IMG/VR virus record: IMGVR_UViG_3300025418_000011
Strand: one strand, 5' to 3'
DNA from: a virus
Length of the DNA: 64,000 bases
In this document: piece after piece, positions 33,560-54,598 of the stretch
Layout: every line of letters starts with the position of its first letter
Position numbering within the stretch: position 1 is the stretch's first letter
Translations under genes and position numbers: made by a program
Notes under the pieces: generated by a model
The model's input: only the letters and a program-made list of their open reading frames with translations
What the model was told of the DNA's origin: nothing
The model's database searches: none

Positions 33560-34252
33560 ATGAATACGATGACTAAGGCCGAGAAGGCACAAAAAATAAA
33601 AGAATACTTTGGAAACATTCGACTAGACGTGGGTGTTATGGGGAAAACCCTTGGTATGTCTGTTAACCACATAAATCCCGCGGTATTACTGCAGACAACG
33701 AGTAAGCTTTTAAAGGTTTATAGCAGAGAAGTACATCCCGATGATAGAGATAACCTGGCGTATTCAAAATTTTTAGGTGCGGAGGATTATGTCAAAGAGC
33801 ACATAGAGCACGATGCGGGTAAGATACAAATGAAAGCAAAGATGAAGCTCAGACAAAAAAGAAATCTATCCTGGCTGCATAGCGGCTTTTTTACTCCTCA
33901 AATAAAGAGTGTTTTTGTGGGTAACGCCCTGAGCCAAAACATCGAGGGTGTAAATCCTATGGAGCAATATATGCTTGCCCACAAAGTCAGCAAGATGGGT
34001 GAGGGCGGCATAGGAAGCACAGAGAGCATTCCTGATAGCTCCAGAAGTGTTAATGAGAGTCAGTTTGGACTAATGGACCCTATTCAAACAGTAGAAGCCG
34101 AAACAATAGGCGTGGTAAACTTTTTTGTTAAAAACTGCAGAAAAGGAGAAGACGGTAAGCTCTATAGATTAGTAGAGGACTCTTCTGGTAAAAAAATTTG
34201 GATAGATCATCAGACTTTCTTGAACTCTGTTGTTGAGGTTCCAGAAAGCTGA
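33560..34252 (+). CDS. rpoB: RNA polymerase beta subunit, middle fragment (fork/rifampicin-pocket region)
   Basis: DDRDNL = DDIDHL; LSQNIEGVNPM = LSQFMDQNNPL; KVSKMGEGG = RISALGPGG; RSVNESQFGLMDPIQTVE = RDVHPTHYGRVCPIETPE. Confidence 0.9.
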   Translation: MNTMTKAEKAQKIKEYFGNIRLDVGVMGKTLGMSVNHINPAVLLQTTSKLLKVYSREVHPDDRDNLAYSKFLGAEDYVKEHIEHDAGKIQMKAKMKLRQKRNLSWLHSGFFTPQIKSVFVGNALSQNIEGVNPMEQYMLAHKVSKMGEGGIGSTESIPDSSRSVNESQFGLMDPIQTVEAETIGVVNFFVKNCRKGEDGKLYRLVEDSSGKKIWIDHQTFLNSVVEVPES

Positions 34253-34256
34253 AAAT

Positions 34257-35834
34257 TTACGCAGGAGCATACCCGTTATACCAGCCACTATATATTTCGA
34301 TAGGACTACGACCGTCGTTTGGATTAGATGGCAGTAAGCAGCAAGTGGGGCCTGGGCATCGTTTATCTCCGCGGTATCCAACCACCCAAACATAAATATC
34401 CCTTGTTACTCCGAGAACGCAAACAGATATAGGTAACCAACAGCCACTAAGAACAGATGACAACTTATCTCCTAGCTTAAAGTCTGCTTTTAGTTGATAG
34501 TGAGGAGGAGTATGCGTAGCACCTGCCGCGCTTGGTACTCGCAGAACATCAACACTCCAAGGTAACCCGTGAGTCTGTACGTCGCTATCAAATAGAATTT
34601 CTGGTACCTCTATATTACCATCTAATATAAGCTGGCATTGCCCTTTATTCCCAGAGGAGGACAGTTTTACGTTTCCTTGTGCCATCCCTGATGTGGTAAC
34701 TGTTCCAAATACTTTGTAAGCTTCACAAAAGTTAGTCACAAGATCCAGTTTTAAATCCACCGAACAATTTTCTTCTTGTTGTTGAGCGTAACTAGCAGAA
34801 GATATAGAAGCTGTTGGGCCTGTGGAGCTCGTTGGACCTGTTATGGCTTTTGGTTTAACCAGGAAAGTGGATCCCGAGAAAGCCGAGGGAGGGTTGAATA
34901 TAGGATTTATTTTAATTGCTTCACAGGCATTAACATGAAGGTCTAAATCATAGCTTATTGTGCATGGAGGACCACCGCCTCCGCCTGTAGGCCCTGTTGT
35001 TGCCGTGAGTGACTGTTTGTTGTAAATATTAAACGCAGATCCCGCCATATTAGGGGGAAAATTAATATTTCCTTTTTCGACAAAAATAACCTCGCAAGCC
35101 TGAGGAACGAATATATTCCCTGTAAGCTGGGCTCCGCAGTCAGGAGCGCTAGAAACACTTCCGAATGTTAAACTTCCTTGCGCACTGCCTGTGAGCTTTA
35201 CATTAGAATCAATTTTAAAATTTTCACACGCAGTAACGTGAATATTTCCTCCCAATAAAATACCGCAATCAGGGGCGTTGCCAGAGCTAGTAACAGTTAT
35301 TTGCCCGTCTGCTGCCCCAGTCTGCACTATGTTTCCTTTTACCTGAACTGTTTGACAGGCGAGAGCAGCAATATTCGGAGCGTTATAAACAGGCGTTACA
35401 AGATTTACGTTTGGAAATGCAAAACTGCAGGCCCTATCCATAGGTGTGATAGGGCTGCCTAAGTCTAATAGAGGAGCGCTAAGTGCGGGTAATGCGCAGT
35501 TATCTGGCGGGGTTATTGTGCCCAATATAAGACTAGTGCCACTAGAAATATTATGTGTGAGATGCGCGCTAAGAGTTATGGTATTTCCATAGATCTGAGT
35601 TATTGTTGTATTGGGCTGAATGCCATAAGCCTCTACAATCTGACCAACACTTAATAAACTTGGGCTGTTTACAACTAAGTCTAATGCATTTGTTAATGCT
35701 AACTGAGTAACTACAACAGACTCATTAGAAATACTAAAATATCCTGGCTGATATTGCGCCGTGTATTGAGGAACTCCTAAAGTATCTGGTGAGCCTAGTA
35801 TTACACTAGATGTATTTATTTCTAATCCGGCCAT
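34257..35834 (-). CDS. Cys-rich repeat tail fibre/spike-like protein
   Basis: 525 aa; N-terminal VGQIVEAYGIQPNTTITQI module; about five repeats each bounded by C...ACE. Confidence 0.55.
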   Translation of the reverse strand: MAGLEINTSSVILGSPDTLGVPQYTAQYQPGYFSISNESVVVTQLALTNALDLVVNSPSLLSVGQIVEAYGIQPNTTITQIYGNTITLSAHLTHNISSGTSLILGTITPPDNCALPALSAPLLDLGSPITPMDRACSFAFPNVNLVTPVYNAPNIAALACQTVQVKGNIVQTGAADGQITVTSSGNAPDCGILLGGNIHVTACENFKIDSNVKLTGSAQGSLTFGSVSSAPDCGAQLTGNIFVPQACEVIFVEKGNINFPPNMAGSAFNIYNKQSLTATTGPTGGGGGPPCTISYDLDLHVNACEAIKINPIFNPPSAFSGSTFLVKPKAITGPTSSTGPTASISSASYAQQQEENCSVDLKLDLVTNFCEAYKVFGTVTTSGMAQGNVKLSSSGNKGQCQLILDGNIEVPEILFDSDVQTHGLPWSVDVLRVPSAAGATHTPPHYQLKADFKLGDKLSSVLSGCWLPISVCVLGVTRDIYVWVVGYRGDKRCPGPTCCLLPSNPNDGRSPIEIYSGWYNGYAPA

Positions 35835-35835
35835 A

Positions 35836-36189
35836 TCAAATAATTCTATTTAAACAGCCATATAAAAACAAGCCTATAGGTATAACTAAAAAGTTAATAT
35901 TAAATACCAAAGCAATATCTAAACCTAACCAAAATCCAAAACAAATAGGACATGTAACTAAACGAACCAGGAAAGAGTCGTGATAATATTCCTTTAAAAA
36001 TTGAACGTATCCATCCGGATAGCCGTTTTCTACCAATTCATAATATTTGCCTACTTTAAAATATTTAGAAAGCTTGAAAAGATTTATATACTCGGCAAAC
36101 GCATTTGTTCTAAACCAAACCAATAGAATATAAGCCAACCATGCAGAGGCTCCTAACAATATAATAAAATTATTAGGAGCCTCTGACAT
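35836..36189 (-). CDS. DUF1360-like membrane protein with CxxC
   Basis: Two hydrophobic segments and LVTCPICFGFW. Confidence 0.65.
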   Translation of the reverse strand: MSEAPNNFIILLGASAWLAYILLVWFRTNAFAEYINLFKLSKYFKVGKYYELVENGYPDGYVQFLKEYYHDSFLVRLVTCPICFGFWLGLDIALVFNINFLVIPIGLFLYGCLNRII

Positions 36190-36197
36190 ATAGTTAT

Positions 36198-36479
36198 TTA
36201 CTGAGCAGCCGACAACTCAGTAATCTTTTTCTGCAATTCGAATAATAGGTTTTTTTGGGCCGTAGCTGCGATCTTTCGGCTTTGTAGCATATTCATTCTT
36301 TCTGTTAGCTGCTTATTTGCTTCTGTGACTTCGGCAATTCCTGATTCTAGCCCATTGAGCTGATCTTCAACTTGAGCTAGACCGTCCTCTATCAGGAGCA
36401 TAGAGATATGCTTGTCTGTTTCTGTACTTACCACTGCGGGAAGTTCTACTGTGCCTCTTTGTTCATCTTGTGCGCTCAT
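36198..36479 (-). CDS. Coiled-coil hypothetical protein
   Basis: 93 aa with heptads. Confidence 0.6.
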   Translation of the reverse strand: MSAQDEQRGTVELPAVVSTETDKHISMLLIEDGLAQVEDQLNGLESGIAEVTEANKQLTERMNMLQSRKIAATAQKNLLFELQKKITELSAAQ

Positions 36480-36480
36480 A

Positions 36481-36627
36481 TTATTCCTTGGTTAATAATT
36501 CTTTTATCTCGGCGTTGATTCTTTTGATGTCTTCGTTATAAGCCTGCATCTCGGCTTTTTTATTTTTCCTGGTTTGTTCAAGCTCTTGAACAAGACGAAA
36601 TACTTGGGATTCTTTTGATTCTTCCAT
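36481..36627 (-). CDS. Small coiled-coil protein (48 aa)
   Basis: Own translation: MEESKESQVFRLVQELEQTRKNKKAEMQAYNEDIKRINAEIKELLTKE. Confidence 0.55.
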   Translation of the reverse strand: MEESKESQVFRLVQELEQTRKNKKAEMQAYNEDIKRINAEIKELLTKE

Positions 36628-36702
36628 GTGTTTATTATTTGTTTAAGTGTTACTGACGAGAATTAATATATACGATCTCTAGCTACGCGCAAGTGCTTTT
36701 TA

Positions 36703-36735
36703 TAAAAAAATAAGGGTGTGGATTTCTCCACACCC
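36703..36735 (-). terminator. Intrinsic terminator
   Basis: - strand GGGTGTGGA-GAAA-TCCACACCC followed by TTATTTTTTT. Confidence 0.85.
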
Positions 36736-36761
36736 CCATTCTTTTTTAACTGGTCTAAAGA

Positions 36762-37277: not shown

Positions 37278-37423
37278 AATTTTTAATTGTTGTTTGTTTT
37301 TGGTTGAACTATCAACAATGGATTATGCCCTTGCAACAGACTAGGATTACTAATCCAGAGAAACATAAGGTTTCTCCATTGCTGATAGTTATTATTACTT
37401 ATTGTTTGTTAGTATGCAATATT

Positions 37424-37645: not shown

Positions 37646-37699
37646 GTGTGTGTTCACCTCCTCTTAATATATACCTCTGACACGGTAGGGTTGCAAATT

Positions 37700-38353
37700 T
37701 TAACTTAAAAATATTTTATTGTACAACTTGTCTATTTCGTCGCCTGTGTACATTTTCTTATTGGCTAAATAAATCTCATTTCCCCAGGCGGCTTGCATTT
37801 GGCTATCAGACACGCCGAGATCTCTCATCACACCATAAAGCTTTATTTGCGTGTTCTGAAGCATCAAAACAAAAAGTTGTTTGTCTGGATAAAATAATAT
37901 TCTTCCGCCCATTCCTGTTCTAGGGGCCGGATTGATGTGAGCTTCTGCTTCTCCGCTTTGGCGAATCCTGGAGTAAACCCCAGGAAGCAATCTCTGCTGA
38001 TGAATAGGCTCATACTCACTGCCGTTATACACAACCGTATTCCTGTCTGTGACAAAAGGAATATTCGCAATGGTAATATGTTTGGATTCTACCCGCTGAC
38101 CTGTGCGTTTATCCACCAAGTGCACATCTCCCTTTATTGGGTAAGTAAGATCACGCTTTTCTAAGATAGCCTTTTTCTGGTCCTCTATAGAGAATGGCTT
38201 TGGGTGTATCTCTATGTTCTCTACCTCTAACTTGTGGTCGTTTGTTTCTATCTGCCCTAACTTAGACTTAAAACCTTCTAGCACATGTTTCTGAATAAGC
38301 TTATTCAGTGCATGCGGATCAAAAAAATCTCTGGTATTTTTAGGAAACTCCAT
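37700..38353 (-). CDS. rpoB: RNA polymerase beta subunit, N-terminal fragment
   Basis: KRDLTYPIKGDVHL = RGVTYSAPLRVKL; IANIPFVTDRNTVVYNGSE = MGEIPLMTDNGTFVINGTE; QQRLLPGVY = QLHRSPGVF. Confidence 0.88.
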   Translation of the reverse strand: MEFPKNTRDFFDPHALNKLIQKHVLEGFKSKLGQIETNDHKLEVENIEIHPKPFSIEDQKKAILEKRDLTYPIKGDVHLVDKRTGQRVESKHITIANIPFVTDRNTVVYNGSEYEPIHQQRLLPGVYSRIRQSGEAEAHINPAPRTGMGGRILFYPDKQLFVLMLQNTQIKLYGVMRDLGVSDSQMQAAWGNEIYLANKKMYTGDEIDKLYNKIFLS

Positions 38354-38552
38354 TTGAAAGCTTTTTTTGCACTGCTCTTGTTATTATTATCCAGGCACTG
38401 TGATAATCTTCTTCTGATAAGAAATCTTCTGCTGTTAACTCTACCTCTATAGGCTTACCAGGGTAGGTCACTTTTTCTTTTTCTCCGCCGATTTCTTCTA
38501 GGTATGTTCCTTTTATTTTTAAAGACGGAATATAGATTTGTTTAGCTTGCAT
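38340..38552 (-). CDS. Hypothetical protein
   Basis: 70-aa ORF in the operon. Confidence 0.55.
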   Translation of the reverse strand: MQAKQIYIPSLKIKGTYLEEIGGEKEKVTYPGKPIEVELTAEDFLSEEDYHSAWIIITRAVQKKLSNGVS

Positions 38553-39030
38553 TGTTCAAATCCTCTGTGAGTAAGGATTCAAGATATGCTTTAGTCTTCT
38601 CATCTTCAAGAAGTTTTTTCATTTCAGGATATTTAGTTTCTAAAATAACCTTTTTTTCAGGTACCTCAGAAGTTTCTGGTGCGTCTGGACCCGCAATGGT
38701 ATTTACCGCACCTTTAACGGCTTTTGCTGTTAATACACTTCTAAGCACATGAGGATCTATGAGTCCTGCTAACTTTTCTTGCCCTTTAACAGGAGAGCCT
38801 ATGCTGTGCACTTCGTTAGCTGGAGTATTAAAAATGGTTTTTTCAGGGCCTAAGTTTAAATTCAACTTTCCCTGCATTTGTGGAAGCAGTGGAGCTATTC
38901 CTGGATTAGGTCTGGGTGCAATATTATCTAATATTTTACTCACACGGGAGGTTAAGAGGTTGGTTAAAAAACCTCCCTCTTTTTCCATATCGGAAAATCC
39001 TCTTTCAAATTCGCTCCAGTCTATTTTCAT
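38542..39030 (-). CDS. Putative head-associated protein (K-x-A family)
   Basis: EFERGFSDMEKEGG, QEKLAG. Confidence 0.55.
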   Translation of the reverse strand: MKIDWSEFERGFSDMEKEGGFLTNLLTSRVSKILDNIAPRPNPGIAPLLPQMQGKLNLNLGPEKTIFNTPANEVHSIGSPVKGQEKLAGLIDPHVLRSVLTAKAVKGAVNTIAGPDAPETSEVPEKKVILETKYPEMKKLLEDEKTKAYLESLLTEDLNNAS

Positions 39031-39761
39031 CCTATGTTGTAAGGTTCTAATTCTACTCTGGTAGGAATGTTAGAGATATAATCCTCAGCGTGATTTTTCT
39101 CTCTAAGCTTCTTCTTAATAACATAAGTAAGATAAGCACTACCTGCGCCTGTACCTATTAATCCTGTGGCACCTAAATCAATAACAGGGTCAACAGGCTT
39201 TTTCAAGATACCTAGGCCTTTACCAAGAAGTCTCTTTAGGCTGTGATCGCTTATTTCTACATCTTCTGCAGTATTACCTGCAGTTTTAGGAAGAATTTCA
39301 CTGATGGTCGCTTCTGCAGCCAATCCATTGCAGAATGCATCCACGTTAGGGGTTTCTAATTCACCCTGCTTAATCTTTTGAAGTGTTTGGAGATATTCTT
39401 TTTGCGCATCCTGAAGTTCACGCTGTATCTGCATCTTCTGTTGCTGAAAGTATTCTCTCCTGGCTTCGTGAAAGCCTGCCTCACCACCAAACACAGAGCG
39501 AATTGGGTTTCTGTTGAATCTGATTGCTCTTCCTATCAACCCAGGAGAAGCCTCGCCCTCTTCACTGGTTTTGTGCAAAGTATTTACAGGAATAGGAATT
39601 CTCAAGGTGTCTCCTCCACCAAGACCTTCCATTCTGCGGGTGGCCTCTTCCTGTTCTTTTGCAAGTTGTATAGCACTGAACAAGCTTCTGCCAAAAAGCT
39701 TAGAAGCAAGATAAGCCTCTTCTGGAGATAGAGGTATTTTTGTTTGGTTGTTATTATTCAT
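39027..39761 (-). CDS. Putative head-associated protein (K-x-A family, C-terminal hydrophobic segment)
   Basis: LHKTSE, LPKTAG, GATGLIGTGAGSAYLTYVI. Confidence 0.55.
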   Translation of the reverse strand: MNNNNQTKIPLSPEEAYLASKLFGRSLFSAIQLAKEQEEATRRMEGLGGGDTLRIPIPVNTLHKTSEEGEASPGLIGRAIRFNRNPIRSVFGGEAGFHEARREYFQQQKMQIQRELQDAQKEYLQTLQKIKQGELETPNVDAFCNGLAAEATISEILPKTAGNTAEDVEISDHSLKRLLGKGLGILKKPVDPVIDLGATGLIGTGAGSAYLTYVIKKKLREKNHAEDYISNIPTRVELEPYNIG

Positions 39762-40122
39762 TAGAGGTTTCCTTCTTTTTTCCGTAAATCACAAAGACTC
39801 TATAACTTCCTTGAGGAGTCCAATTATCCTTGTAGTAGCTGATCACATATTTCTCGTCGTTCAAGAGCCTGGACAGCATTTCACCATCATGCTGCTTTTC
39901 TGGGTCTAATACGATGTTGTGAAACTCATATATAGAGAGATCCATCTTTGGCTTTTTAGCCCAGCCCTTGGCCTGCTCAAAGGCATCTACTGTTTTTTGC
40001 TGATCTAGGATCTCTCCTTTTAATTCTCTCTGGATGCTGCGCTTGGGCTGAGGCCTGAAGTCAGGACTAGCTGTTCCAAAGTCAAAATGTTCTGTTGCTT
40101 TTTCTGTGTTAGTGTAGGCCAT
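39754..40122 (-). CDS. Hypothetical protein
   Basis: 122-aa ORF in the operon. Confidence 0.6.
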   Translation of the reverse strand: MAYTNTEKATEHFDFGTASPDFRPQPKRSIQRELKGEILDQQKTVDAFEQAKGWAKKPKMDLSIYEFHNIVLDPEKQHDGEMLSRLLNDEKYVISYYKDNWTPQGSYRVFVIYGKKKETSNE

Positions 40123-40480
40123 GTTCTTGTTTTAGTTTGTGGGTTAAATTTCTAATCATATGTACCTTCTGCCTCTCTCTGGCTAGGGCTTGATTTAATT
40201 CTGAAACATTATTTTCCATCTCGTCAAAAGCCATGCCGCCAGCAGCTCCTGCTGCGGCGCTTGTGTTCATGGCCCAATGAGGAAGACCTCCTGCAATACC
40301 TGCAGCAGGACGAATGAGAAAGTCATTCATTACATTAAGATCAGACGCAACCTTCATGGCTCCTTCTGCCGTATTGATATTAGCCAGGGCATGCTCGAAT
40401 TCCTCCAACGAGCTTCCGATCTTCTGAAGATCATCGGCTAATACTTCTTTTATTGTTTTTGCGTAAGATGTTAAGTTCAT
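40109..40480 (-). CDS. Putative head-associated protein (K-x-A family, Gly zipper)
   Basis: LQKIGS, AMKVAS, AAGIAGG...AAAGAAGG. Confidence 0.55.
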   Translation of the reverse strand: MNLTSYAKTIKEVLADDLQKIGSSLEEFEHALANINTAEGAMKVASDLNVMNDFLIRPAAGIAGGLPHWAMNTSAAAGAAGGMAFDEMENNVSELNQALARERQKVHMIRNLTHKLKQEHGLH

Positions 40481-40860
40481 AGTACTGTGACTGTTCCTGT
40501 ATCAGGGTCCCAACGTGTAAATTTCGAGGGACCCATCAATTTGTTTAATATTATATTTCCTAATCCAAAACCTGCCAAGCTCATAAGTACCTGGCTAGTG
40601 CCGCTCATCTTTTTCCACCTAGCCACAGCCAGAGCCAAGGCTGCCCCTGCTGTTCCGGCGAGCAAATGACTGGCTACATCTGGTGAGTTGAGCATTCTCA
40701 ATATGTGGGTCTTTTGATCCTGAGAAAGAGCATGGTCTGCTTTTATATATTTTGCAAGATCCGCAGGAAGCATTGTTTCTCCTGGACCTATCAAACTAGA
40801 GAAATCCAGCGCACCTCCTAGCTCCAACCCTTCCATGCCTGTTGAGATAGCTTCGTTCAT
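40477..40860 (-). CDS. Putative membrane-interacting protein (two hydrophobic Gly-rich helices)
   Basis: LLAGTAGAALALAVARW; LMSLAGFGLGNIIL. Confidence 0.55.
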   Translation of the reverse strand: MNEAISTGMEGLELGGALDFSSLIGPGETMLPADLAKYIKADHALSQDQKTHILRMLNSPDVASHLLAGTAGAALALAVARWKKMSGTSQVLMSLAGFGLGNIILNKLMGPSKFTRWDPDTGTVTVL

Positions 40861-41657
40861 TTTAAAGCCCCTCCTAACCCCACAAGAGCTCCACCAGCGA
40901 GCAATGGAAGTCCAACAGATCTATTGAACTCTTGCCCTGGGTTTGCCTGCATTTGCTGATTATATTCAGGGCTAAGTTTCTTTCTAAGATGATTCAAGAG
41001 CAACCCTCCAAGAATTGTTCCACCTATGGTGAGTAGAGGGTGTGAAGCCATTGCGCCCATAGCTCCTCTCACATTGTTGATTCCTCCGAACATGAGATGA
41101 GCCGCATTTTCAGGAGAGCCTAGAAGTCCGTTGAATTCTGCAGTTTTAATTTCTTCTTCTCCTCCTCTCAAGAGTGCTTCTGGATCAACTTTAGGAATGA
41201 CTTGCGATTCTTGATTTTTAATAGCCTCTAACCTCTTCATCATCTTTTTAGATGGCAGATATTTCCAGTTTCTGCCTTCACTGTGCTCTAACACAAATGT
41301 AGGATTTTCTCTGCCTGTGGCTAGGGTCATATAGATGCTGTGCGGGCTACTTCTGTGGATTTGGGCCGTGCCTCCGTGCAGTTTGTCTTTCTCAAAGTCT
41401 AATATATTTATATCTTTGAGTTTTTCAACAGGTTTGAGTTCTCCTCCGAACTCACTCAATCCAAAGCCGTAAACATGGTTACCATCAGATAGCCTCAACC
41501 CTTCAGGAGTAACCACATATTTCCAGTTCTTCTGCCCTGAGAAAGATGGAAGTATATTCTCGTTAGCCAGGTGGTCTACATAGCTATTGAAATCTCCCTT
41601 CTTCTCGTTGAGGAGGTCATTAAAGCCCAAGCTAAAAGCCGTGAGGTCTAAATCCAT
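40857..41657 (-). CDS. Putative head-associated protein (K-x-A family, Gly zipper C-terminus)
   Basis: ATG at 41657 preferred; EIKTAE, then IGGTILGGLLL and LLAGGALVGLGG. Confidence 0.55.
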   Translation of the reverse strand: MDLDLTAFSLGFNDLLNEKKGDFNSYVDHLANENILPSFSGQKNWKYVVTPEGLRLSDGNHVYGFGLSEFGGELKPVEKLKDINILDFEKDKLHGGTAQIHRSSPHSIYMTLATGRENPTFVLEHSEGRNWKYLPSKKMMKRLEAIKNQESQVIPKVDPEALLRGGEEEIKTAEFNGLLGSPENAAHLMFGGINNVRGAMGAMASHPLLTIGGTILGGLLLNHLRKKLSPEYNQQMQANPGQEFNRSVGLPLLAGGALVGLGGALK

Positions 41658-41659
41658 AT

Positions 41660-42760
41660 TTATCTGATAGAGGAAGGCATCGCGTCTCTGCTCCAACCAT
41701 AACCATAGCTAGCTAACGGGTTGCCCCCTCCCATAGCAGAGTTCATCATGCCTGGTAAGAACTTATGGCCTAGAAACCCGCCTAAAAGTAAAGGAGTCAC
41801 TGTGCCTAGAGGAAGCCCCAATTCTTTGCTGAGCATCAATGCACCTAATGCGCCTCCTGCCGTACCAGCCAGCTCGTTAGAAATTCCTGGAATCATTTGG
41901 TGTTGGTTCCAGGGCGGCTGACCATATTTGAAGTCTCCCCCATCTCCTGAGATAGACCTACCCAGTAAAGCTCCTCCTCCTAATGCACCGGCACCAACGC
42001 CAGCAACTCCTGCTCTACCTAATAGTCCGGCAGCCCCTCCTAGCGCGGCTCCTCCTAAAGCTCCTGGTAAACCTCCCAGTGCACCTATTCCACCGCCGTA
42101 GAGGGCCCCCTTGCCTGCTTTGTTCCATCTACGTGCCCAGAATCCTGGACCCATGAATCCAGGGTCTCCTGACTGTGGAGTTGCTTGAGGGGTGGAAGTT
42201 GTGGGTTCTGCTGCAGGTGTAATAGGCTCCGCAGCTGGATGCGCTGCTTCTGATGCAGGAACTCCTCCAGCCCCTTCTGAAGCACTGAAGCCAGGACGAA
42301 TCTTATTTGCCTCTTCTCCGACACCCATAAATGTATTTTTCAATCCTTGCAGCATACCCTCACCCTTTCCTGCTTCTCTCCAGGTGTCTCCTACTCCCTT
42401 GAAAACTCTACCCAAGCCCTCACCTATACCACCTAGTCCCCTGAGGAGTGAAGCTTCTCCTCCTGCGGTCTTCTCGTTGAACTCTCCTGCAATCTTCTCT
42501 AGTTCAACCTCGCTCTCTTTGAAGAATCCCTCTATGAATGCTTCGTCCTTTCCTTCTTCTAGCAAAGCCTCTTTCACGCCCTTTCTGAACTCTAGACTCT
42601 CTTCTCTCACTTGATTCAACAGAGCTGAAGTCTTCTCCAGGAACTCCATAGTCTCTTTGTTCGAGAGTATTGTATCCACTATTCCCAGCGAGGCTTCTTT
42701 GGATATTCCCTCCTGAGATAATACTTCTAACATTCCTGACTTCAGTGCTTCTGGATTCAT
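41660..42760 (-). CDS. Putative head-associated/ejection protein (multiple K-x-A, long Gly zipper)
   Basis: ISKEAS, LEKTSA, LEKIAG, NEKTAG; GGIGALGGLPGALGGAALGGAAGLLG. Confidence 0.6.
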   Translation of the reverse strand: MNPEALKSGMLEVLSQEGISKEASLGIVDTILSNKETMEFLEKTSALLNQVREESLEFRKGVKEALLEEGKDEAFIEGFFKESEVELEKIAGEFNEKTAGGEASLLRGLGGIGEGLGRVFKGVGDTWREAGKGEGMLQGLKNTFMGVGEEANKIRPGFSASEGAGGVPASEAAHPAAEPITPAAEPTTSTPQATPQSGDPGFMGPGFWARRWNKAGKGALYGGGIGALGGLPGALGGAALGGAAGLLGRAGVAGVGAGALGGGALLGRSISGDGGDFKYGQPPWNQHQMIPGISNELAGTAGGALGALMLSKELGLPLGTVTPLLLGGFLGHKFLPGMMNSAMGGGNPLASYGYGWSRDAMPSSIR

Positions 42761-43871
42761 ATTCTGGGTTTGCGCAAGATTTAGTTCTATCGATTTTATC
42801 TTTAGAATGCTTTTTTTGCAAGTCAGGATTCTTCTCTAATCCTCCGCACCCTGTTTTGTGTGTATGTAGGAAGAAATAAGCCACAGAGTATGCCATCTCA
42901 CGAGCATTTCTAACCAGCTCGGCACCATCATCAGGATTCCACTCAGTGGACAGTCTATCACTCCAATCATACACACCAGTTATGTATCCTAGATAGTTCT
43001 CAAACTCAGAGGTTCTGCTCTTCCAGGTTATATATTTGTTATCTCCAGCCATTCCCATAGAAATAGCTTTGTCTAACTTAAGTTTAGATCTCATATCCTC
43101 TTCTGACCAACCTTTATCCGCCCAGAACACCACATGAGTATGAGGATGAATCACACGGCTAGAGATAGAAGTAGCACTGCACTCATGACTGTAGAAGTAG
43201 TCAGAGATAACGCCAGAGCGCTTCAATGCCATCAACCTACCTCTGGTTTTCTTGAAGTCACCGTCCAAACTAGATATCCATTCTTCACCGTGATCTGGAA
43301 TGTGAACATCATCTTCATGAATAACAAAGGTCATAGCACGTTTACCAGACCTGAAGAGATCAGAGATAGAGAGCGAACGCTGATTCAACCACTTTGTACT
43401 ATCATTCCTAGTAGTATATGGGTTGAGAGTCTTGCTTTTGAGATTCTTACCACAAACTCCTTTCTTATATGAGAGCATACTGTTTAAGAGAGAACCAGAG
43501 CTCAACAGGCTATCACCAGTAAGAGCAACAAATGAGCACCAACGAGTAAATTGGTTCTTACGCTTCATACCCCATGCAGGATAGTAAATGATTCCATGAT
43601 TACCAGATCTACCTTCACCCTGAACTTCTTTCTCTAGTATTCTAAGTATGTTCCAACTTTCACCAGGAGTGAGATAATCCCAACCAGCAATTATAGAGCG
43701 CATATTTGTAGGGTCTACTTCAGCTCTAGAGGTGGGAGAATAGTCTAGGGGTTTGTTCATACACCTGTTCGCCCCTAAAGCCAACCATTCGTTAATTACC
43801 CTATCCCTTGGGCGGTTAGGTTTCATGTCCACCCCACACAATTGTCCGGCTAACTCTTCTTCTGAAAGCAT
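42504..43871 (-). CDS. Rolling-circle Rep-like HUH endonuclease (Rep_1/pC194-like, divergent)
   Basis: AMTFV (motif 1), YFYSHECS...IHPHTHVVFW (E + HUH motif 2; cf. RALEVT...YHPHFHVL), ENYLGYIT (motif 3 Tyr). C-terminal ~85 codons overlap 41660..42760. Confidence 0.65.
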   Translation of the reverse strand: MLSEEELAGQLCGVDMKPNRPRDRVINEWLALGANRCMNKPLDYSPTSRAEVDPTNMRSIIAGWDYLTPGESWNILRILEKEVQGEGRSGNHGIIYYPAWGMKRKNQFTRWCSFVALTGDSLLSSGSLLNSMLSYKKGVCGKNLKSKTLNPYTTRNDSTKWLNQRSLSISDLFRSGKRAMTFVIHEDDVHIPDHGEEWISSLDGDFKKTRGRLMALKRSGVISDYFYSHECSATSISSRVIHPHTHVVFWADKGWSEEDMRSKLKLDKAISMGMAGDNKYITWKSRTSEFENYLGYITGVYDWSDRLSTEWNPDDGAELVRNAREMAYSVAYFFLHTHKTGCGGLEKNPDLQKKHSKDKIDRTKSCANPEYESRSTEVRNVRSIISGGNIQRSLAGNSGYNTLEQRDYGVPGEDFSSVESSERRESRVQKGRERGFARRRKGRSIHRGILQRERG

Positions 43872-43877
43872 GGGCTC

Positions 43878-44363: not shown

Positions 44364-44413
44364 CTTCTTTAAAAAGGTTAAAATATTCTAGTATAACCAA
44401 CATATCTAATATT

Positions 44414-45205
44414 ATGAGCATAACCGGAAAAACATTTCAGGGAGGAAGGCAGCCAAGAAGTCATAATCCCAAGATTCCCTTCATGCGCACACTGCTGGCG
44501 GGCAAACCAATTCCCGCTTTTCCGGAAGAAGTTGATTATACCGTAGGAATGCCCAGCAATCTGGGAGTGATGATGAATGACCAACTGGGCGACTGTACCT
44601 GCGCGGCGTTCTATCACGCACTACAGGTTTGGAGTTATAATACAACAGGGCAGTTATTAACAGAAGACGACGCTGAAGTTGAAATCCTGTATGAGCGCGC
44701 TTGCGGATATATACCAGGTAATCCTGCCACAGATAACGGTGGTAATGAGCAGCAAGTTCTCACCTATCTTCTCAATGAGGGGGCACCTGTAGGGTCGGGA
44801 GACGCAGAGAGACATAAGTTGACTGCTTTTTATGAAATTCATGTTAATCACATTGACGCCATAAAATCTGCTATCAATGCATGTGGTGTGTTGTATATGG
44901 GTATAGACGTTCCTCAATATATTACTCCTCCAGAAGGCAACCCTCCCGCTGTTTGGACACTCGAACCTTCAGCAGACAATACTATAGTAGGAGGGCATGC
45001 CATTATTGCTGCCGGATATAATAATGTTGGATTAAAAGTTATTTCATGGGGGCAATATTACACAATGACTTGGGATTTCTTTAGTAAGTTTACAGATGAG
45101 GCATATGCTCTTGTGGACGTTGAATGGGTTAAATCTAACAATTCTACTCCTGCGGGTTTAACCCTAGACCAGTTAGAGCAGGCAATGGCAGAGCTCAGGA
45201 ATTAA
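44414..45205 (+). CDS. Papain-like cysteine peptidase (C1 family)
   Basis: NDQLGDCTCAA (Gln, Cys), VGGHAIIAAGY (His), ISWG. Confidence 0.85.
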   Translation: MSITGKTFQGGRQPRSHNPKIPFMRTLLAGKPIPAFPEEVDYTVGMPSNLGVMMNDQLGDCTCAAFYHALQVWSYNTTGQLLTEDDAEVEILYERACGYIPGNPATDNGGNEQQVLTYLLNEGAPVGSGDAERHKLTAFYEIHVNHIDAIKSAINACGVLYMGIDVPQYITPPEGNPPAVWTLEPSADNTIVGGHAIIAAGYNNVGLKVISWGQYYTMTWDFFSKFTDEAYALVDVEWVKSNNSTPAGLTLDQLEQAMAELRN

Positions 45206-45268
45206 CTACATAACGCGGCTATTAACAAATCAGTAGCCTTTTAAACAGGCTGTTGATAGAATGTTTGG

Positions 45269-48256
45269 ATGAAAGAGTACAAATTCGTGTTGGACCACGG
45301 AAAACTCAAAAAAGTCCCAAGATCAACTAAAGTAGATTATAAGATTCCGAGCACCACGGATTTCTTCTCTCCTGTTACAAATCTCATACCTAGCCTGAGC
45401 AGCGTTTCCGGTGCTCGTGTGCTTATCGGAGACAAGAGTTCGCTGCAGGCCATGACTCTGGTTAACAGAGAAGCCCCGTTGGTTCAATCTAGCGAAAGTC
45501 AGGAACACAAGAGCTTTGTTGAACAGTTTGGACACAAGCTTGTTAGTATACGCAGCAATATTTCAGGAAAAGTCACTTCAGTAGACAACGACAAGATTGT
45601 TATAAAAGACAACTCTGGTAAAGAGCACGAACATCCGCTTTATCAAAATTATTTAGTAGGTAGAGAAAGTTATATGCACCATACACCTACTGTTAAAGTA
45701 GGTGATTCTGTTAAACCTGAAAGTTTATTAGCTACCTCTAACTACTCAGACAGTCATGGCAATATGGCCTTGGGTATGAATCTCAAAACGGCCGTGATGC
45801 CGTATAGATCGTATAACTTTGAGGACGCACTTGTTATTAGCGAAGATGCTGCAAAAAAATTAGAAGCAGAGCAACTTGTTCCAGTTAGATTGGAGATAGC
45901 TAGAGGTATAGAAACAGAAAAAGATAAATATGTTTCTCTGTTTCCTAATAAATACTTTAATGACCAGTTAGGTAAATTAGATAGCTCTGGTGTTGTGAAA
46001 AGGGGAAGTGTAGTAAAGCACGGAGATCCATTGATTCTTGCCTATCAGCCTAAAACATTAAAGTCATTAGAGATTCAATTAGGTAAACTTTCCAGAGCAT
46101 TAAAAAACGCGTATTCAGATATCACAGAGACCTGGACTTACGAGCACGATGGTGAAGTTGTGGATGTTAGCAACACAGGTAAATTAATCACAGTAACTAT
46201 AAAGACTCGTAGGCCTATGGCCACAGCTGACAAACTATCTAATCCTTTCGGAGCAAAGGGGGTGGTTAGAATTGTTAGCAATAGTGAAATGCCTCAAGGA
46301 GAAGACGGTAAACCTATAGATGTATTGCTCAATTCGATGAGTGTTACTAGCCGTGTTGCTCCGGGGCTCATCACGACCATGGCAATGGGCAAGGTTGCTC
46401 AAAAATTAGGACATAGTCTAAAAATCACACCATTCTCTGATGGTAGCGTTGTTGAAAAAACAATAAAAGAATTAGAGAAACACGGCATAAAAGACACAGA
46501 GAAATTATACGATCCTGTTTCTGGTAAACACATAGAAGTATTCACCGGACCATCTTACTACACTCGACTCCATCATATAGCTGAAGATAAAATTTCGTCC
46601 AGATCGTCAGGAACTACCTACGATATCAATATGCAACCCTCTAAGGCGGGCACAGAAGAAAAGAGTAAGCGTTTGGGAAATCTTGCAACCACGGTGGCAC
46701 TTTCTAACGACGCTAAAGAAGTTTTAAAAGATGTTGCCGTTGTTAGAGGAACAAAAAACGACGAGTTCTGGAATGCAATAAAATTAGGTTATGCTCCACC
46801 TCCACCAAAAGTTCCATTTATATTTAACAAGTTTATCTCTCACCTAGAAGGTTCTGGTGTGCACGTTAATCAAGAGGGAACTAAGTTTAATATTCTTCCC
46901 CAAACAGATAAGGATATAGAAAAAATTAGTCACGGTGAAATTCATGAACCTCTAACCTACAAATTAAAAAATGGTGAATTAGTCGCTGAGAATAACGGAC
47001 TTTTTGACCCTGTAAATGTAGGTATTTATGGAGATAACTATAATCATATCAATCTTTCATTTAAAGTCCCCAATCCTGTTAGTGAAGAACCACTTCGTAA
47101 ACTTTTAGGAGTTACTAAAAATAAGTTTGAAGAGATGCTTGCTGATGGATCGTTAGAGAAAGCTTTAAATGGTATAAAGCTAGACGATAAAATAAACGAG
47201 CTGAAGGGTTACATTAAGTCTAACAGAAAAACAGAGAGAGACTCAGCTGTTAAAGTTTTGTCTTTCTTAACCATGTTGAAGAGGCAGGATTTACATCCTA
47301 AAGATTTATTAATTTCTAAAATTCCGGTTATCCCTGCCCAATATAGACCTATTACTGCTCAAGGTAATCAAATCATGAGCGCTGATGTTAACGAGCTATA
47401 TAAAGATTTGATGCTGGTTAATAAATCTTTTAATGGTATAGACGAGCATACTCCAGTGGAATTAAAAGGAGAGGCTCGCAAAAAATTATACGAGGGCGTT
47501 AGAGCTGTGTATGGTTTAGGCGAACCAATCAGCACCAGGAGCAAAGAAAAAAACTTTAAAGGTTTGTTAGCCACAACACTGGGCACACAAGGAGGTAGTG
47601 CAAAAAGCTCAATGTTCCAGGCAAAGGTTGTGAATAAACCAATAGACCTCGTGGGTAGAGGGGTACTTGTGCCGGATGGAAATCTTCAATTGAACGAAGC
47701 GGCAATTCCTCAGGCTATTTTGTGGAATATATACACTCCTTTTGTTATTCGGAGATTAGTAAGGCAGGGAGTACCAGCCACAAAGGCAAGAGACTATGTT
47801 AAGTCTAAACACCCTTTAGCCTCCTTGGCTTTACAAGAAGAACTCAAGGATCGCCCAGGAATTGTTACCAGAGACCCGCAGTTATCCAAATATAACTTTC
47901 AAGGATTCTACCTTAGGCCTAACCCGGATCCTAAAGACTTCTCTATAAAGCTCAACCCCTTGGTGTTTAAAGGTTATGGTGCTGATTCTGACGGAGACCA
48001 ATTGAATGTGCAAGTTCCGGCAGGAGACGCAGCTAAAGAAGAAGTTAAAGAAAAGTTATTCCCTGAGAAAAACTTAATTTATCATAGAACTTTTAGCCCT
48101 ATATATACCCCATCAAATGAGGCGGCTGTGGGATTATTTGCGGCTAGCTACGAGAATAAACATAATAAACCTATGCACTACTCTAGCGAAGCCCAGGTAG
48201 TTGCCGATTTTATGGCCGGAAAGCTAGACATAGGAGATAATATTGACTTATCTTAA
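45269..48256 (+). CDS. rpoB-rpoC: RNA polymerase beta C-terminal / beta' N-terminal fusion (catalytic DxDGD)
   Basis: beta: YNFEDA, DKLSNPFGAKGVV, DVLLN, YYTRLHHIAEDKISSR, KRLGN. beta': GLFD, HINL, IPVIPAQYRP, DVNELY, IDLVGRGV, RDPQL, YGADSDGDQ. Confidence 0.95.
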   Translation: MKEYKFVLDHGKLKKVPRSTKVDYKIPSTTDFFSPVTNLIPSLSSVSGARVLIGDKSSLQAMTLVNREAPLVQSSESQEHKSFVEQFGHKLVSIRSNISGKVTSVDNDKIVIKDNSGKEHEHPLYQNYLVGRESYMHHTPTVKVGDSVKPESLLATSNYSDSHGNMALGMNLKTAVMPYRSYNFEDALVISEDAAKKLEAEQLVPVRLEIARGIETEKDKYVSLFPNKYFNDQLGKLDSSGVVKRGSVVKHGDPLILAYQPKTLKSLEIQLGKLSRALKNAYSDITETWTYEHDGEVVDVSNTGKLITVTIKTRRPMATADKLSNPFGAKGVVRIVSNSEMPQGEDGKPIDVLLNSMSVTSRVAPGLITTMAMGKVAQKLGHSLKITPFSDGSVVEKTIKELEKHGIKDTEKLYDPVSGKHIEVFTGPSYYTRLHHIAEDKISSRSSGTTYDINMQPSKAGTEEKSKRLGNLATTVALSNDAKEVLKDVAVVRGTKNDEFWNAIKLGYAPPPPKVPFIFNKFISHLEGSGVHVNQEGTKFNILPQTDKDIEKISHGEIHEPLTYKLKNGELVAENNGLFDPVNVGIYGDNYNHINLSFKVPNPVSEEPLRKLLGVTKNKFEEMLADGSLEKALNGIKLDDKINELKGYIKSNRKTERDSAVKVLSFLTMLKRQDLHPKDLLISKIPVIPAQYRPITAQGNQIMSADVNELYKDLMLVNKSFNGIDEHTPVELKGEARKKLYEGVRAVYGLGEPISTRSKEKNFKGLLATTLGTQGGSAKSSMFQAKVVNKPIDLVGRGVLVPDGNLQLNEAAIPQAILWNIYTPFVIRRLVRQGVPATKARDYVKSKHPLASLALQEELKDRPGIVTRDPQLSKYNFQGFYLRPNPDPKDFSIKLNPLVFKGYGADSDGDQLNVQVPAGDAAKEEVKEKLFPEKNLIYHRTFSPIYTPSNEAAVGLFAASYENKHNKPMHYSSEAQVVADFMAGKLDIGDNIDLS

Positions 48257-48286
48257 AGCTTTATTAAACTTTAAGTATCACATACA

Positions 48287-48487
48287 ATGATAGATGAAGA
48301 AATTTGGTTTAAGCTAACTGATGAAGAAAAGTTGGCGGAGCTAGAACACTATCTAGATGAACTCCGCAGGCTTGATTCCGGAGAGCATGAACTAAGGGGT
48401 ACCCATCAACAGGGTAAAATTAAGACTTTAAAAAAAGAAATAAAGAAGAAAATAAATAAAATAATAGACCTGGAGTATATCAAATGA
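48287..48487 (+). CDS. Hypothetical protein
   Basis: 66-aa ORF. Confidence 0.55.
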   Translation: MIDEEIWFKLTDEEKLAELEHYLDELRRLDSGEHELRGTHQQGKIKTLKKEIKKKINKIIDLEYIK

Positions 48488-49080
48488 ATATTCAATCCCT
48501 TATAGAATCTTATGATGGCCTAGTTAAAGAGGCGTTCATCCCAAATCCCCAGGCGCAACAAGATCAGGGACAGTTGCAACAAGCTCAGCAACAGCTTATG
48601 GGTATGATCTCTCAACTCCCTCCCGAACTTCAGCAGCAGATTTCCCCGGCGTTGCAGCAACTTCAACAGCTTCCGCCCGACCAGCAGCTCCAGGCCATGC
48701 AACAGCTTGCCCAGCAGATCCAGCAGGTAGGTCAACAACAAGCGCAGCCTCAGCAACCACAGGAAGGCCAACCGGCAGAACAAGCCGAGCAGGAACCTCA
48801 GCAAGCCGCAGGAAATGTTAATGCGGAGAACAGCCTCGATAACACAAAGGTAACACTTTCTGTCAGAGAACTCTTAGATCTTTCGAGTGGCGGCAAGGCT
48901 ACCCATAGCTTGCTTAAGGTTAAACAACTTGCGGACACCCATAATAAAAAAATGGAAGCTATGCAGAAGCAGCAGCAGCAAGCAGAAGATCAGGCTCAGC
49001 AAGAGCAAGCCCAGCAATCCGCTATGGGGCAAGGTGGTATTTATACAGCTCCCATGGGATCAGGAAAACCACAACAATGA
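48484..49080 (+). CDS. Gln-rich putative head-associated protein (K-x-A family)
   Basis: SYDGLVKEAF, then Q/P-rich repeats. Confidence 0.6.
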   Translation: MNIQSLIESYDGLVKEAFIPNPQAQQDQGQLQQAQQQLMGMISQLPPELQQQISPALQQLQQLPPDQQLQAMQQLAQQIQQVGQQQAQPQQPQEGQPAEQAEQEPQQAAGNVNAENSLDNTKVTLSVRELLDLSSGGKATHSLLKVKQLADTHNKKMEAMQKQQQQAEDQAQQEQAQQSAMGQGGIYTAPMGSGKPQQ

Positions 49081-49403
49081 GCTCCTTAGAAAAAGTTAGC
49101 AATTATTTGGACAGCTTCACTCCAGAAGATGCAAATTTTGACTATGCTTGTTATATTCGAGAAAAACTTGCGGATATGCAGGCAGTGCAATCAGCAGGAG
49201 TCATTAACTCAGAAGAAAGTACGGACGAGCATACTGGAGATTTAGATACATCAGAACAAGATAAGGCCCATGATAATTTAGAGGGAAAATTAATGCATGG
49301 AGCTTTTCAGGACTTAGAGGCATTAAATCAAATAGATAAGGATAAATTAAAAGTAGCCTCTCCTGTAAAAGATTTGTTAGATAAAATAACCAGCAAAAAA
49401 TAA
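49077..49403 (+). CDS. Acidic putative head-associated protein
   Basis: LEKVSN, KLKVAS. Confidence 0.55.
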   Translation: MSSLEKVSNYLDSFTPEDANFDYACYIREKLADMQAVQSAGVINSEESTDEHTGDLDTSEQDKAHDNLEGKLMHGAFQDLEALNQIDKDKLKVASPVKDLLDKITSKK

Positions 49404-49404
49404 T

Positions 49405-51267
49405 ATGCCTGTTACCACGGTAGGGAGAATACTTTTAAAGGAGTATACTCCTAGACACTTACACCACATGATAGATGGGCAGATTCTCGATAAAAAGGGA
49501 ATCTCTAACCTTTTTAGTGAGCTGGTAAAGCAGGAGCCGGAGAATTATAGTAAAATTGCTTCAGATCTTACTAGGCTTGGATTTGAAGTAGCCACTAGGC
49601 AAGGAACATCCATCACTCTTAAAGATCTTGTTTCTCCTGTTAATACTAAAGAAATTTATGATAAGTTCGATGAGTTCCAGGAAAAGGTAAAAAGCTCTAA
49701 AGACCCAGAGCACATCAAGAATCAAAGAATTTTTGATAAATATAATTCTTTGATGGAAGAAACCAACAAAACTATTCTTGATGAGGGACTTAAGAATAAT
49801 AAGTCTTTGGCTAAGATTATTTTAGCAGGGTCTAGAGGATCTCCTGCACAATATAGATCAACTATCGCAACTCAGGGAATTGTAGTGGATGCGGAAGGTA
49901 ACCCTAAGATGGATATCCCCGTTAAGAGCTCTTTTGCCGAAGGATTATCTCTTCCAGAATATTTAGTCACATCTTTTGGTACTCGTTCTGGTGAGGTTGT
50001 TAAAAAGATTGGTGTGGCTCAGGGTGGATACAGCTCTAAGCAGTTCTCCAGAGCCCTGATGAATCTACAAGTTACAGAACATGATTGCGGAACCACAAGC
50101 GGAATAAGTGTACCTACCTCAGATAAAGATTCTGTTGGTGCTTATCTTGCACAACCCGCAGGAGAGTATAAGCGTAATAATGAAGTTACTGCTAAGATGT
50201 TAAATGACTTGAAAAGTCATGGAATTGATAAAATTTTGATACGCTCGCCCATGACTTGCAAGGCAAGTAACAACAGTCACTTTGGAGCCGTTTGCCAATT
50301 ATGTGTAGGCAGAAGAGAAAAGGGGCTGGCGGCCCCTGATAGTTATATTGGTTTAGTGGCGGGTACCGCAGTCAGCGAACCCTTGACCGAGTACGCGATG
50401 AAACTGAGACACGGAGGAGGAGCCGCCACATCTTTAGGTGGGGTCACAGGGTTCAAGATGATTAATCAGCTAGCCAATATTCCAAAGACATTTTTAAACA
50501 AGGCTCCACTCGCTCAAGAAGATGGAATTGTTACAAATGTTCAACATGCTGCCGCCGGTGGATATTTTATAAAAATAAATGATACAGAGTATTATATAGG
50601 TGTAGGGCAAGAGCCTTATGTTAAGGTTGGAGATAAAGTTGAACAAGGGGATGTGCTAAGTTCGGGACTAGTTGATCCTAGCGAGGTTGTAAGATACAAA
50701 GGTATAGGTGAGGGAAGAAGCTATTATGCTCAAGCAATGAAAAAGGCTTTTGATGAGGGTAACCTGGGAGTAAATAGAAGAAACTTTGAATTGATCGCCA
50801 GGTCCGCCATAGATCACGTAAAAATAAATGATAATGACGGGCTTGGTGACTTTCTACCCGATCAAATTGTTTCATACGCCGCACTTGAGAAGAATTATGT
50901 ACCTAGACCTAACAGTAAAATTTTAAGATCAGACTTAGCCTACGGTAAATATTTGGAAAAGCCTGCTTTACATTATACAATAGGTACAAGAATATCTTCG
51001 TCGGTTATTAAAAATTTAACAGAGCATGGAATAGAATCTGTTGAGGTTAATGACGATCCCCCCAATTTTGAACCTCACATGGTTAGACTATTAGACGTAC
51101 CTGAGCACGTAGATGACTTTATGCATGTGCTCTATAGTACAAATCTAGCAAAGCGTTTTAGTAATGCCGTGAACGAAGGAGCTTCTTCTGACATTAGAGG
51201 ACCTAGCCCTATTCCTGGCATTGCTCATGGTGTAGGATTTGGCGAACACACAAATTTCAAAGAGTAG
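49405..51267 (+). CDS. rpoC: RNA polymerase beta' subunit, C-terminal part
   Basis: GSRGS, SFAEGL..PEY (bridge helix), EHDCGT, RSPMTC, CQLCVG (Zn), SEPLTEYAMKLRHGGG (trigger loop). Confidence 0.95.
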   Translation: MPVTTVGRILLKEYTPRHLHHMIDGQILDKKGISNLFSELVKQEPENYSKIASDLTRLGFEVATRQGTSITLKDLVSPVNTKEIYDKFDEFQEKVKSSKDPEHIKNQRIFDKYNSLMEETNKTILDEGLKNNKSLAKIILAGSRGSPAQYRSTIATQGIVVDAEGNPKMDIPVKSSFAEGLSLPEYLVTSFGTRSGEVVKKIGVAQGGYSSKQFSRALMNLQVTEHDCGTTSGISVPTSDKDSVGAYLAQPAGEYKRNNEVTAKMLNDLKSHGIDKILIRSPMTCKASNNSHFGAVCQLCVGRREKGLAAPDSYIGLVAGTAVSEPLTEYAMKLRHGGGAATSLGGVTGFKMINQLANIPKTFLNKAPLAQEDGIVTNVQHAAAGGYFIKINDTEYYIGVGQEPYVKVGDKVEQGDVLSSGLVDPSEVVRYKGIGEGRSYYAQAMKKAFDEGNLGVNRRNFELIARSAIDHVKINDNDGLGDFLPDQIVSYAALEKNYVPRPNSKILRSDLAYGKYLEKPALHYTIGTRISSSVIKNLTEHGIESVEVNDDPPNFEPHMVRLLDVPEHVDDFMHVLYSTNLAKRFSNAVNEGASSDIRGPSPIPGIAHGVGFGEHTNFKE

Positions 51268-54585: not shown

Positions 54586-54598
54586 GATCCCACACAAC

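Follow-up and report, generated by a model that had tools for sequence, protein, structure and literature searches.

Within a 64,000-nucleotide stretch (the window) of the genome of an uncultured virus, IMGVR_UViG_3300025418_000011 (182,120 bp; classed by IMG/VR as linear and 93% complete), lie the pieces of a multisubunit RNA polymerase divided among four genes on both strands. An earlier note, made from the letters of the window, had proposed this arrangement, and the open reading frames (ORFs) and domain matches bear it out. The gene for the N-terminal part of beta (beta-N; 37700-38353, - strand, 217 residues) aligns with bacterial beta at about residues 70-220 in PDB chains (E 3e-7) and has no Pfam match. 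That for the middle part (beta-middle; 33560-34252, + strand, 230 residues) matches the Pfam family Rpb2_3 (Rpb2 domain 3; E 3e-6) and PDB beta at about residues 370-590. A fusion gene (45269-48256, + strand, 995 residues) joins the C-terminal part of beta (beta-C, residues 1-537) to the N-terminal part of beta' (beta'-N, residues 538-995), and a fourth gene (beta'-C; 49405-51267, + strand, 620 residues) matches Rpb1_5 (E 1e-14) and Rpb1_3. The pieces are spread over 18 kb, and beta-middle is, as had also been pointed out, a lone + strand gene among - strand genes. The polymerase set is single: across the whole genome Rpb2_6 and Rpb1_2 each match at one locus.

When the 995-residue ORF is used as one query, it aligns both to PDB beta at about residues 605-1160 (E 6e-42) and to beta' at about 150-630 (E 1e-31). 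Its Pfam matches are Rpb2_6 (E 3e-54), Rpb1_1 and Rpb1_2 (E 7e-12), and both double-psi barrels lie on this one chain. At the junction (46856-46942, + strand) the end of beta, GVHVNQEG (residues 530-537), runs directly into the beta' N-terminus, TKFNILPQTDKDIEKISHGEI (residues 538-558). The join is seamless: the C-terminal motif of beta ends at residue 537 and the N-terminal homology of beta' starts from 538-546, while the beta alignments stop at residues 534-553 and a weak alignment of the beta' N-terminus pairs residues 546-579 with beta' 16-47. An AlphaFold2 model built on 47 relatives gives a compact single protein (mean predicted local distance difference test, pLDDT, 84.4; predicted template modelling score, pTM, 0.71), for which the best Foldseek matches are bacterial beta chains (E 1e-36). 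As pLDDT is 77-92 over residues 530-600, no flexible or disordered linker is predicted at the junction, in agreement with the linker-free fusion originally described.

All catalytic elements of the polymerase are retained across the four genes. The active-site lysine motif of beta, DKLSNPFGAKG (46229-46261, + strand), holds K322 and K330, which are invariant in the family, and D321, K322, G328 and K330 are invariant columns in the 47-sequence alignment. The catalytic Mg-binding motif GADSDGDQL (47978-48004, + strand; GADSDGD being residues 904-910) keeps the Asp triad, with D906, D908, G909 and D910 invariant in a family whose consensus is GADxDGD. The conserved Asn of NADFDGD is replaced here by Gly. 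Since this Asn touches the ribose of the nucleotide being added in bacterial enzymes, selectivity for the sugar may be different in the phage enzyme.

The surfaces on which a sigma factor docks in bacteria are also kept. The beta flap-tip helix region (46067-46108, + strand; residues 267-280) was read off the sequence by comparison with the E. coli flap tip, and corresponds to the docking site of sigma region 4 in bacteria; pLDDT is low at residues 266-276 of the model, as expected of a mobile flap tip. The clamp helices, the coiled coil of beta' (47192-47287, + strand), were placed by a residue-by-residue alignment to B. subtilis beta' 149-242 and appear in the model as long helices at residues 638-672; in bacteria they are the docking site of sigma region 2. 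The earlier statement that the flap-tip helix survives is supported, and the clamp helices survive as well. What has been lost is the N-terminal four-Cys zinc-binding domain of beta'. At the site of the deletion (46994-47056, + strand; GLFDP ... NHINL) there is no Cys between GLFDP and NHINL, and beta' homology picks up again at B. subtilis beta' residue 149.

The rest of beta' is found in beta'-C, which matches PDB beta' with E 2e-37 (aligned to about residues 570-1190) and of which residues 26-342 align to residues 13-349 of cyanobacterial RpoC2. Its sequence shows the motifs of the bridge helix (residues 177-218), of the second zinc site (C228, C285, C296, C299) and of the trigger loop, His included (residues 316-339).

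When the records of cultured phages were searched at the protein level, a single ORF covered 98% of the fusion chain in Salmonella phage Arash (OQ632216) and in each of the Vibrio phages D69, D148 and D181. The three beta-side genes of the window tile Arash Gp206 (1525 residues) colinearly, with beta-N at 12-250, beta-middle at 227-469 and the fusion chain at 483-1517, and beta'-C aligns to residues 5-603 of Arash Gp216. Given this colinear tiling, no part is missing here relative to Arash and D69, and the difference consists of two extra cuts within beta. In terms of similarity, the match to PDB bacterial beta (E 6e-42) and those to phrog_24349 and phrog_25354 (E 6e-45 and 1e-33) compare with 1e-17 or weaker for phiKZ-type PHROGs. 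Judged by these scores, the enzyme is much nearer to cellular RNA polymerases than to the phiKZ type, as the earlier note had held for RpoB and RpoC.

Both small beta genes are discrete. Reading directly through the stop of beta-N one finds a ribosome-binding site and a new small ORF; an apparent extension of beta-N beyond this stop in tblastn was discarded as noise, since the new ORF with its own ribosome-binding site begins there. Beta-middle takes in the lobe's second half, what remains of the protrusion, and the fork/rifampicin-pocket region (residues 124-187). It is a stand-alone frame of about 232-294 codons, stop to stop, in 21 related IMG/VR loci (69-93% identical, with a mean column identity of 85%). 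Wherever the flank fetched extends to it, beta-N is likewise a stand-alone frame of about 218-225 codons, on the opposite strand and 4-8 kb off (56-88% identical). The four-gene layout recurs in related IMG/VR contigs with stand-alone frames of equal length, and relatives rated 100% complete, one of them with terminal repeats, have exactly one Rpb2_6 gene each, in a frame of about 1000 codons. Compared with the closest relative (L002), nonsynonymous over synonymous differences (pN/pS) are 0.056/0.81 for beta-middle and 0.095/0.82 for beta-N, by which measure both genes are under strong purifying selection, and many columns are invariant in both alignments, including the fork and rifampicin-pocket motifs. 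We conclude that the division into four genes is genuine, that it is conserved, and that it is almost certainly functional.

Co-folding of beta-N with beta-middle gave a score of 0.84, compared to 0.00 for the best of three controls, with runs sharing at least 97% of contacts and a partner pLDDT of at least 84; the mark used is reached by 58 of 80 solved complexes and by 2 of 110 mismatched pairs. Because intact beta has been solved many times, this pass speaks for likeness to a known fold and is not independent proof of binding.

The earlier note set the combination of fusion and splits apart from the phiKZ/AR9 and Helicobacter/Wolbachia arrangements, but the combination is not peculiar to this genome. 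A search of 5.8 billion proteins gave more than 120 clusters (at 90% identity) of about 995 residues that are 53-92% identical and carry the database names 'hypothetical' or 'biotin carboxyl carrier protein'; genomes of this four-gene clade measure 165-233 kb. A second search, of 1.84 billion representatives, gave 1468 proteins at E <= 1e-30, cellular subunits included, and nearly all of the best 150 of these (35-83% identity) cover both the beta and the beta' parts. Among 268 family members in hand, 127 have about 450-470 extra N-terminal residues, that is, a whole beta, 135 start where the window's chain starts, and 4 include only beta-middle. At the other end, the fused representatives listed stop at the end of the query (e.g. 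query residue 993 is residue 1447 of 1451), and a separate Rpb1_5 gene lies downstream in both relatives whose context was looked at. The fusion and the beta' break are shared with at least 127 representatives, Arash and D69, and the extra cuts with more than 120 clusters. A very large phage family, of which at least 165 representative clusters from genomes of 150-230 kb were examined, has fusion plus beta' break as its standard layout, and the two extra beta cuts are specific to one clade.

That clade is monophyletic, with a support of 100 and a long stem, both in FastTree (23/23 rows split) and in IQ-TREE (9/9). When rooted on four bacterial beta+beta' concatenates, the FastTree topology nests it among the fused forms, with Arash and D69 branching first. 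The two beta cuts are derived, because bacteria and all the other major phage branches have an uninterrupted beta. In other parts of the tree there are further split forms, which start 18-65 residues earlier than the window's chain; these point to independent fissions in the same inter-domain zone, though some of them may be gene-calling artefacts.

The cuts fall at places where polymerases are divided or interrupted elsewhere. The first is in the beta lobe, at the position of the E. coli SI1 insertion: in E. coli numbering the end of beta-N is near residue ~250 and the start of beta-middle near ~380, leaving only about 30 residues unaccounted for relative to Thermus beta. The second lies just past the fork domain, at E. 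coli ~616-629. Beta of E. coli tolerates splitting in vitro near this position, and methanogens and halophiles split subunit B just past the fork domain (Rpb2_3). The beta' cut is near the cyanobacterial gamma/beta' boundary, with residue ~14 of beta'-C corresponding to residue 1 of RpoC2.

Fusion genes of relatives are often extended in other ways. Many carry one to three inteins (LAGLIDADG_3, Intein_splicing), which raise their length to 1300-2900 residues, and some have added N-terminal SET, 2H phosphoesterase or DUF5661 domains; intein-bearing or extended relatives include P0013, P0037, P0097, P0113 and P0122-P0127.

No alpha, omega or sigma gene had been recognised in the window. For alpha and omega this stands in a genome-wide profile search, in which none of PF01000, PF01193 and PF01192 matched the 93%-complete genome at E <= 1, with controls positive in 14 of 14 genomes. 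For sigma it does not: a sigma-70-like ORF of 212 residues lies about 18 kb past the window end (G000:C1:79925-80563, - strand). It matches Sigma70_r3 (E 8e-11, above the cut-off), gives weak region-4 signals, and matches phrog_351 'sigma factor' over residues 6-209 (E 1e-15). The ORF is homologous to Arash Gp10 (E 2e-13), its neighbouring gene is likewise conserved with Arash, and it is present at full length in all seven of the seven related records. For the second sigma of Arash, Gp196, and for that of D69, no homologue was detected in this genome. A weak Sigma70_r4_2 match at G000:C1:163772-163855 was rejected, as it really belongs to a dual-specificity phosphatase-like ORF. This ORF encodes 194 residues (G000:C1:163619-164203, - strand; L032:1348-1932) and matches phrog_32716 and, below the Pfam cut-off, DSPc (E 2e-6).

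Taken together, we consider it probable, at roughly 80%, that the four genes encode one functional bacterial-type core assembled from four polypeptides. Beta-N and beta-middle would interlock and so rebuild the lobe, protrusion and fork of beta. The 995-residue chain would carry the hybrid-binding barrel and flap of beta followed covalently by the clamp and Mg-binding barrel of beta', and beta'-C would supply the bridge helix, the trigger loop and the second zinc site. Assembly of bacterial RNA polymerase is thought to need an alpha dimer that joins beta and beta'. With neither alpha nor omega encoded by the phage, the covalent tether between beta and beta' would take over the role of the alpha dimer. 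Promoters would most likely be recognised by the phage sigma-70-like protein, docking on the kept flap tip and clamp helices. By homology with Arash, enzyme and sigma are probably virion-borne and serve early transcription, and the same enzyme, as the sole polymerase set of the genome, would also serve later transcription. As to origin, a two-gene form (whole beta fused to beta'-N, plus beta'-C) would have undergone two more gene fissions and relocations.

Packaging is made plausible by two observations. In purified Arash virions, Gp206 gave more spectra than any other protein, and Gp216 and Gp10 are also detected (PMC10585845). The genes downstream of beta'-C in the window are homologues of the Arash virion proteins Gp218, Gp220 and Gp222.

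Several points weigh against parts of this proposal. The co-folding result may reflect solved beta subunits that the model has memorised. The sigma-like ORF has no Sigma70_r2 match, and we infer its pairing with the enzyme from co-occurrence and the kept docking surfaces. Packaging, which we regard as plausible, is extrapolated from one distant relative (about 32% identity), whose authors allow that abundant enzymes might co-purify with particles (PMC10585845). The core may use host alpha, and its enzymatic properties may depart from bacterial ones, given the change from Asn to Gly and the loss of the beta' zinc-binding domain. Finally, IQ-TREE does not settle the base or root of the family, so the direction of change rests on outgroup comparison and not on nesting.

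The same doubts about packaging and the lack of a Sigma70_r2 match would suit an alternative in which the same four-chain core is strictly intracellular and unpackaged and uses host alpha and/or host sigma, the phage sigma redirecting the host polymerase; the sigma factors encoded by many large phages do work on the host polymerase (PMC7824862). Set against it are the prominence of Gp206 in Arash virions together with Gp216 and Gp10, the position of the polymerase genes, which immediately precede the head module in this genome as they do in Arash and D69, and the sigma-like gene that accompanies the polymerase in 7/7 relatives. We think this version unlikely, though serious enough to be kept in mind.

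A second alternative would see beta-N and beta-middle as decaying rpoB-like remnants, the working enzyme consisting of the fusion chain and beta'-C and lacking lobe and protrusion. Phages do have minimal two-barrel polymerases (YonO, crAss-like gp66; PMC7824862), and the two small genes are displaced and on different strands. However, both are intact and of constant length in all relatives examined, pN (0.06-0.10) is far under pS (~0.8), dozens of columns are invariant, and the two are predicted to co-fold. The recurrence in relatives, the complete genomes and the low pN/pS exclude pseudogene decay, as they do an assembly artefact, and leave this view very little room. It is no easier to suppose that split inteins rejoin the pieces after translation to give a mature enzyme with the two-chain layout of Arash. 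Though inteins are common in the family, with LAGLIDADG and intein-splicing domains in relatives of 1300-2900 residues, beta-N and beta-middle match Gp206 over their whole lengths, and residue 483 of Gp206 is where the fusion chain begins. There are no spare intein halves of ~100 or ~35 residues at any terminus, nor any intein domain match in the four ORFs, and we rejected split inteins on the strength of the end-to-end tiling. With an uncultured, linear, 93%-complete IMG/VR record one might suspect that faulty assembly or gene calling in a single metagenomic contig produced the scattering; this is barely conceivable when the arrangement recurs at 56-93% identity in independent contigs from many samples, complete genomes among them.

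The surroundings of the polymerase genes were also considered. The pieces had been described as interleaved with head-protein genes. This can be followed in part, from the virion-protein homologues after beta'-C and a major capsid gene just beyond the window end; in the - strand cluster at 38.5-43.9 kb no family is recognisable. The whole - strand cluster from 34.3 to 43.9 kb (including ORFs 38542-43871) and the + strand segment 53617-57143 have no Pfam or PHROG family; ORFs 38542-43871 and 53617-57143 together comprise some twelve ORFs that look conserved. The fusion gene and beta'-C are separated by two small ORFs (48484-49403, + strand). These, one of 198 residues that is Gln-rich and of low complexity and one of 108 residues that is acidic, were considered as extra subunits and rejected: they match no Pfam or PHROG family and have no similarity to their counterparts in L034, Arash or D69. 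Relatives carry two or three different small ORFs at this position. Directly upstream of the fusion gene lies a gene for a 263-residue protein (44414-45205, + strand) with a match to phrog_19005 (E 8e-27). In a relative this position is taken by a DUF7873 gene, and by eye the Cys and His motifs of the 263-residue protein are reminiscent of a papain-like peptidase.

Beta-middle has as its divergent neighbour a dCMP deaminase gene (32808-33251, - strand; phrog_174, E 1e-38). In the window sequence 33500-33562, beta-middle lacks a Shine-Dalgarno motif and has a TATAAT / TAATAT hexamer 7-8 nt ahead of its ATG, which is kept in relatives (L002-L020) whose entire intergenic spacer is about 45 nt, and its mRNA may be leaderless or near-leaderless. 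TATAAT-like hexamers occur 0-19 nt upstream of 16 starts, that of beta-middle among them, and other AT-only hexamers are equally enriched, so we make no promoter claim, and over the whole genome the beta-middle hexamer does not stand out statistically. When 86 upstream regions were scanned for enriched 8-mers, only A/T-rich words likewise emerged. Shine-Dalgarno-like motifs precede only 30 of 219 crude gene calls of the genome, where upstream regions are A/T-rich; this suggests a host with weak Shine-Dalgarno usage, and our guess would be one that is Bacteroidota-like.

An enzyme that is widespread, has no alpha or omega, has its barrels tethered and bears three further cuts offers a natural test of the minimal needs of core assembly. 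If the proposed assembly is true, the four-gene form is a natural experiment in which four dispersed pieces build a bacterial-type core in the absence of alpha.

Among cellular enzymes, the rpoBC fusion of Helicobacter and Wolbachia and the engineered beta-beta' tethers of E. coli join the C-terminus of beta head to tail to the N-terminus of beta', and a fused topology is thus compatible with an active enzyme. In all these cases, however, two full-length subunits are fused and the cell has alpha, omega and sigma, whereas the phage joins no more than beta-C and beta'-N, has lost the zinc-binding domain of beta' beside the joint, and encodes neither alpha nor omega. The beta' break is similar to that between gamma (RpoC1) and beta' (RpoC2) of cyanobacteria and plastids, and the break between beta-middle and beta-C, just after the fork domain, resembles the archaeal B''/B' split. 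Those splits are in cellular genomes, where the genes lie side by side in one orientation and all the small subunits are present, unlike the dispersal over 18 kb and both strands seen here.

Among phage enzymes, those of the phiKZ/AR9 type are likewise two-barrel polymerases without alpha or omega, with beta and beta' in several genes and a break in beta' after the catalytic barrel, and one of their enzymes is carried in the virion (PMC7824862; PMC13282480). They differ from the present phage in having two paralogous sets and highly diverged sequences, and neither a sigma-family factor nor a fusion of beta to beta'. In a 2021 comparative study (PMC7824862) and a 2026 review (PMC13282480), the multisubunit polymerases of phages are split and unfused and have no sigma; reviews up to 2026 state this lack of sigma for phages (PMC13282480). 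The family described here is the first type of phage multisubunit polymerase that we could find to travel with a sigma-70 relative.

The mReC phages (Weinheimer and Aylward 2020) and cultured phages with an unsplit beta', such as Rhizobium phage RHph_TM30 (Kleczkowskaviridae), are, like this one, tailed phages with a polymerase that can be aligned to cellular beta and beta' (at the level of COG0085 and COG0086). Beyond this, the link to mReC drawn in the earlier note is not supported, and the identifiers of mReC contigs match none of the sample numbers of the relatives. The mReC genomes have separate, adjacent, unsplit genes for beta (1011-1364 residues) and beta' (903-1005 residues), were selected for separate beta and beta' of at least 800 residues with NADxDGD, and the paper mentions fusion for crAss-like phages only (PMC7481178). 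The present phage falls outside that selection, its only chain of at least 800 residues being the fusion chain, with the motif GADSDGD. RHph_TM30 has an unsplit beta' of 1127 residues, whereas here beta' is cut and fused to beta. Tentatively, and at somewhat less than even odds, we would place the family beside phiKZ/AR9 and the unsplit mReC/Kleczkowskaviridae enzymes as a third major lineage of phage multisubunit polymerases, with a tether in place of alpha, a sigma-70 relative for promoters, a capsid-borne holoenzyme and an unusually plastic gene, split again and again at permissive sites and prone to gain inteins and N-terminal accessory domains.

The closest comparison is with Arash (PMC10585845) and with D69, D148 and D181, in which the C-terminus of beta is fused to the N-terminus of beta' with the same beta' boundary. 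Identity is about 32% and 26% with Arash and 29% with D69, over nearly the full length. Arash also has the Gp10-type sigma-like gene, and both Arash and D69 have the polymerase genes beside the head module and genomes of about 180 kb. Unlike here, their fusion chain includes the whole of beta (1525-1527 residues; the D69 polymerase genes encode 1527 and 609 residues), giving two genes in place of four of which two small ones have moved, and the portal gene, directly upstream of the polymerase in Arash and D69, is elsewhere in this genome. The Arash paper labels Gp206 'beta' and leaves the fusion unmentioned (PMC10585845), and a full-text literature search found no description of a four-gene fused layout. 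Two-gene relatives have been public since 2023 (Arash, D69) yet the family is essentially undescribed, and its further-split four-gene form is new. As Arash is cultured and carries the two-gene form, the ideas put forward here are directly testable at the bench.

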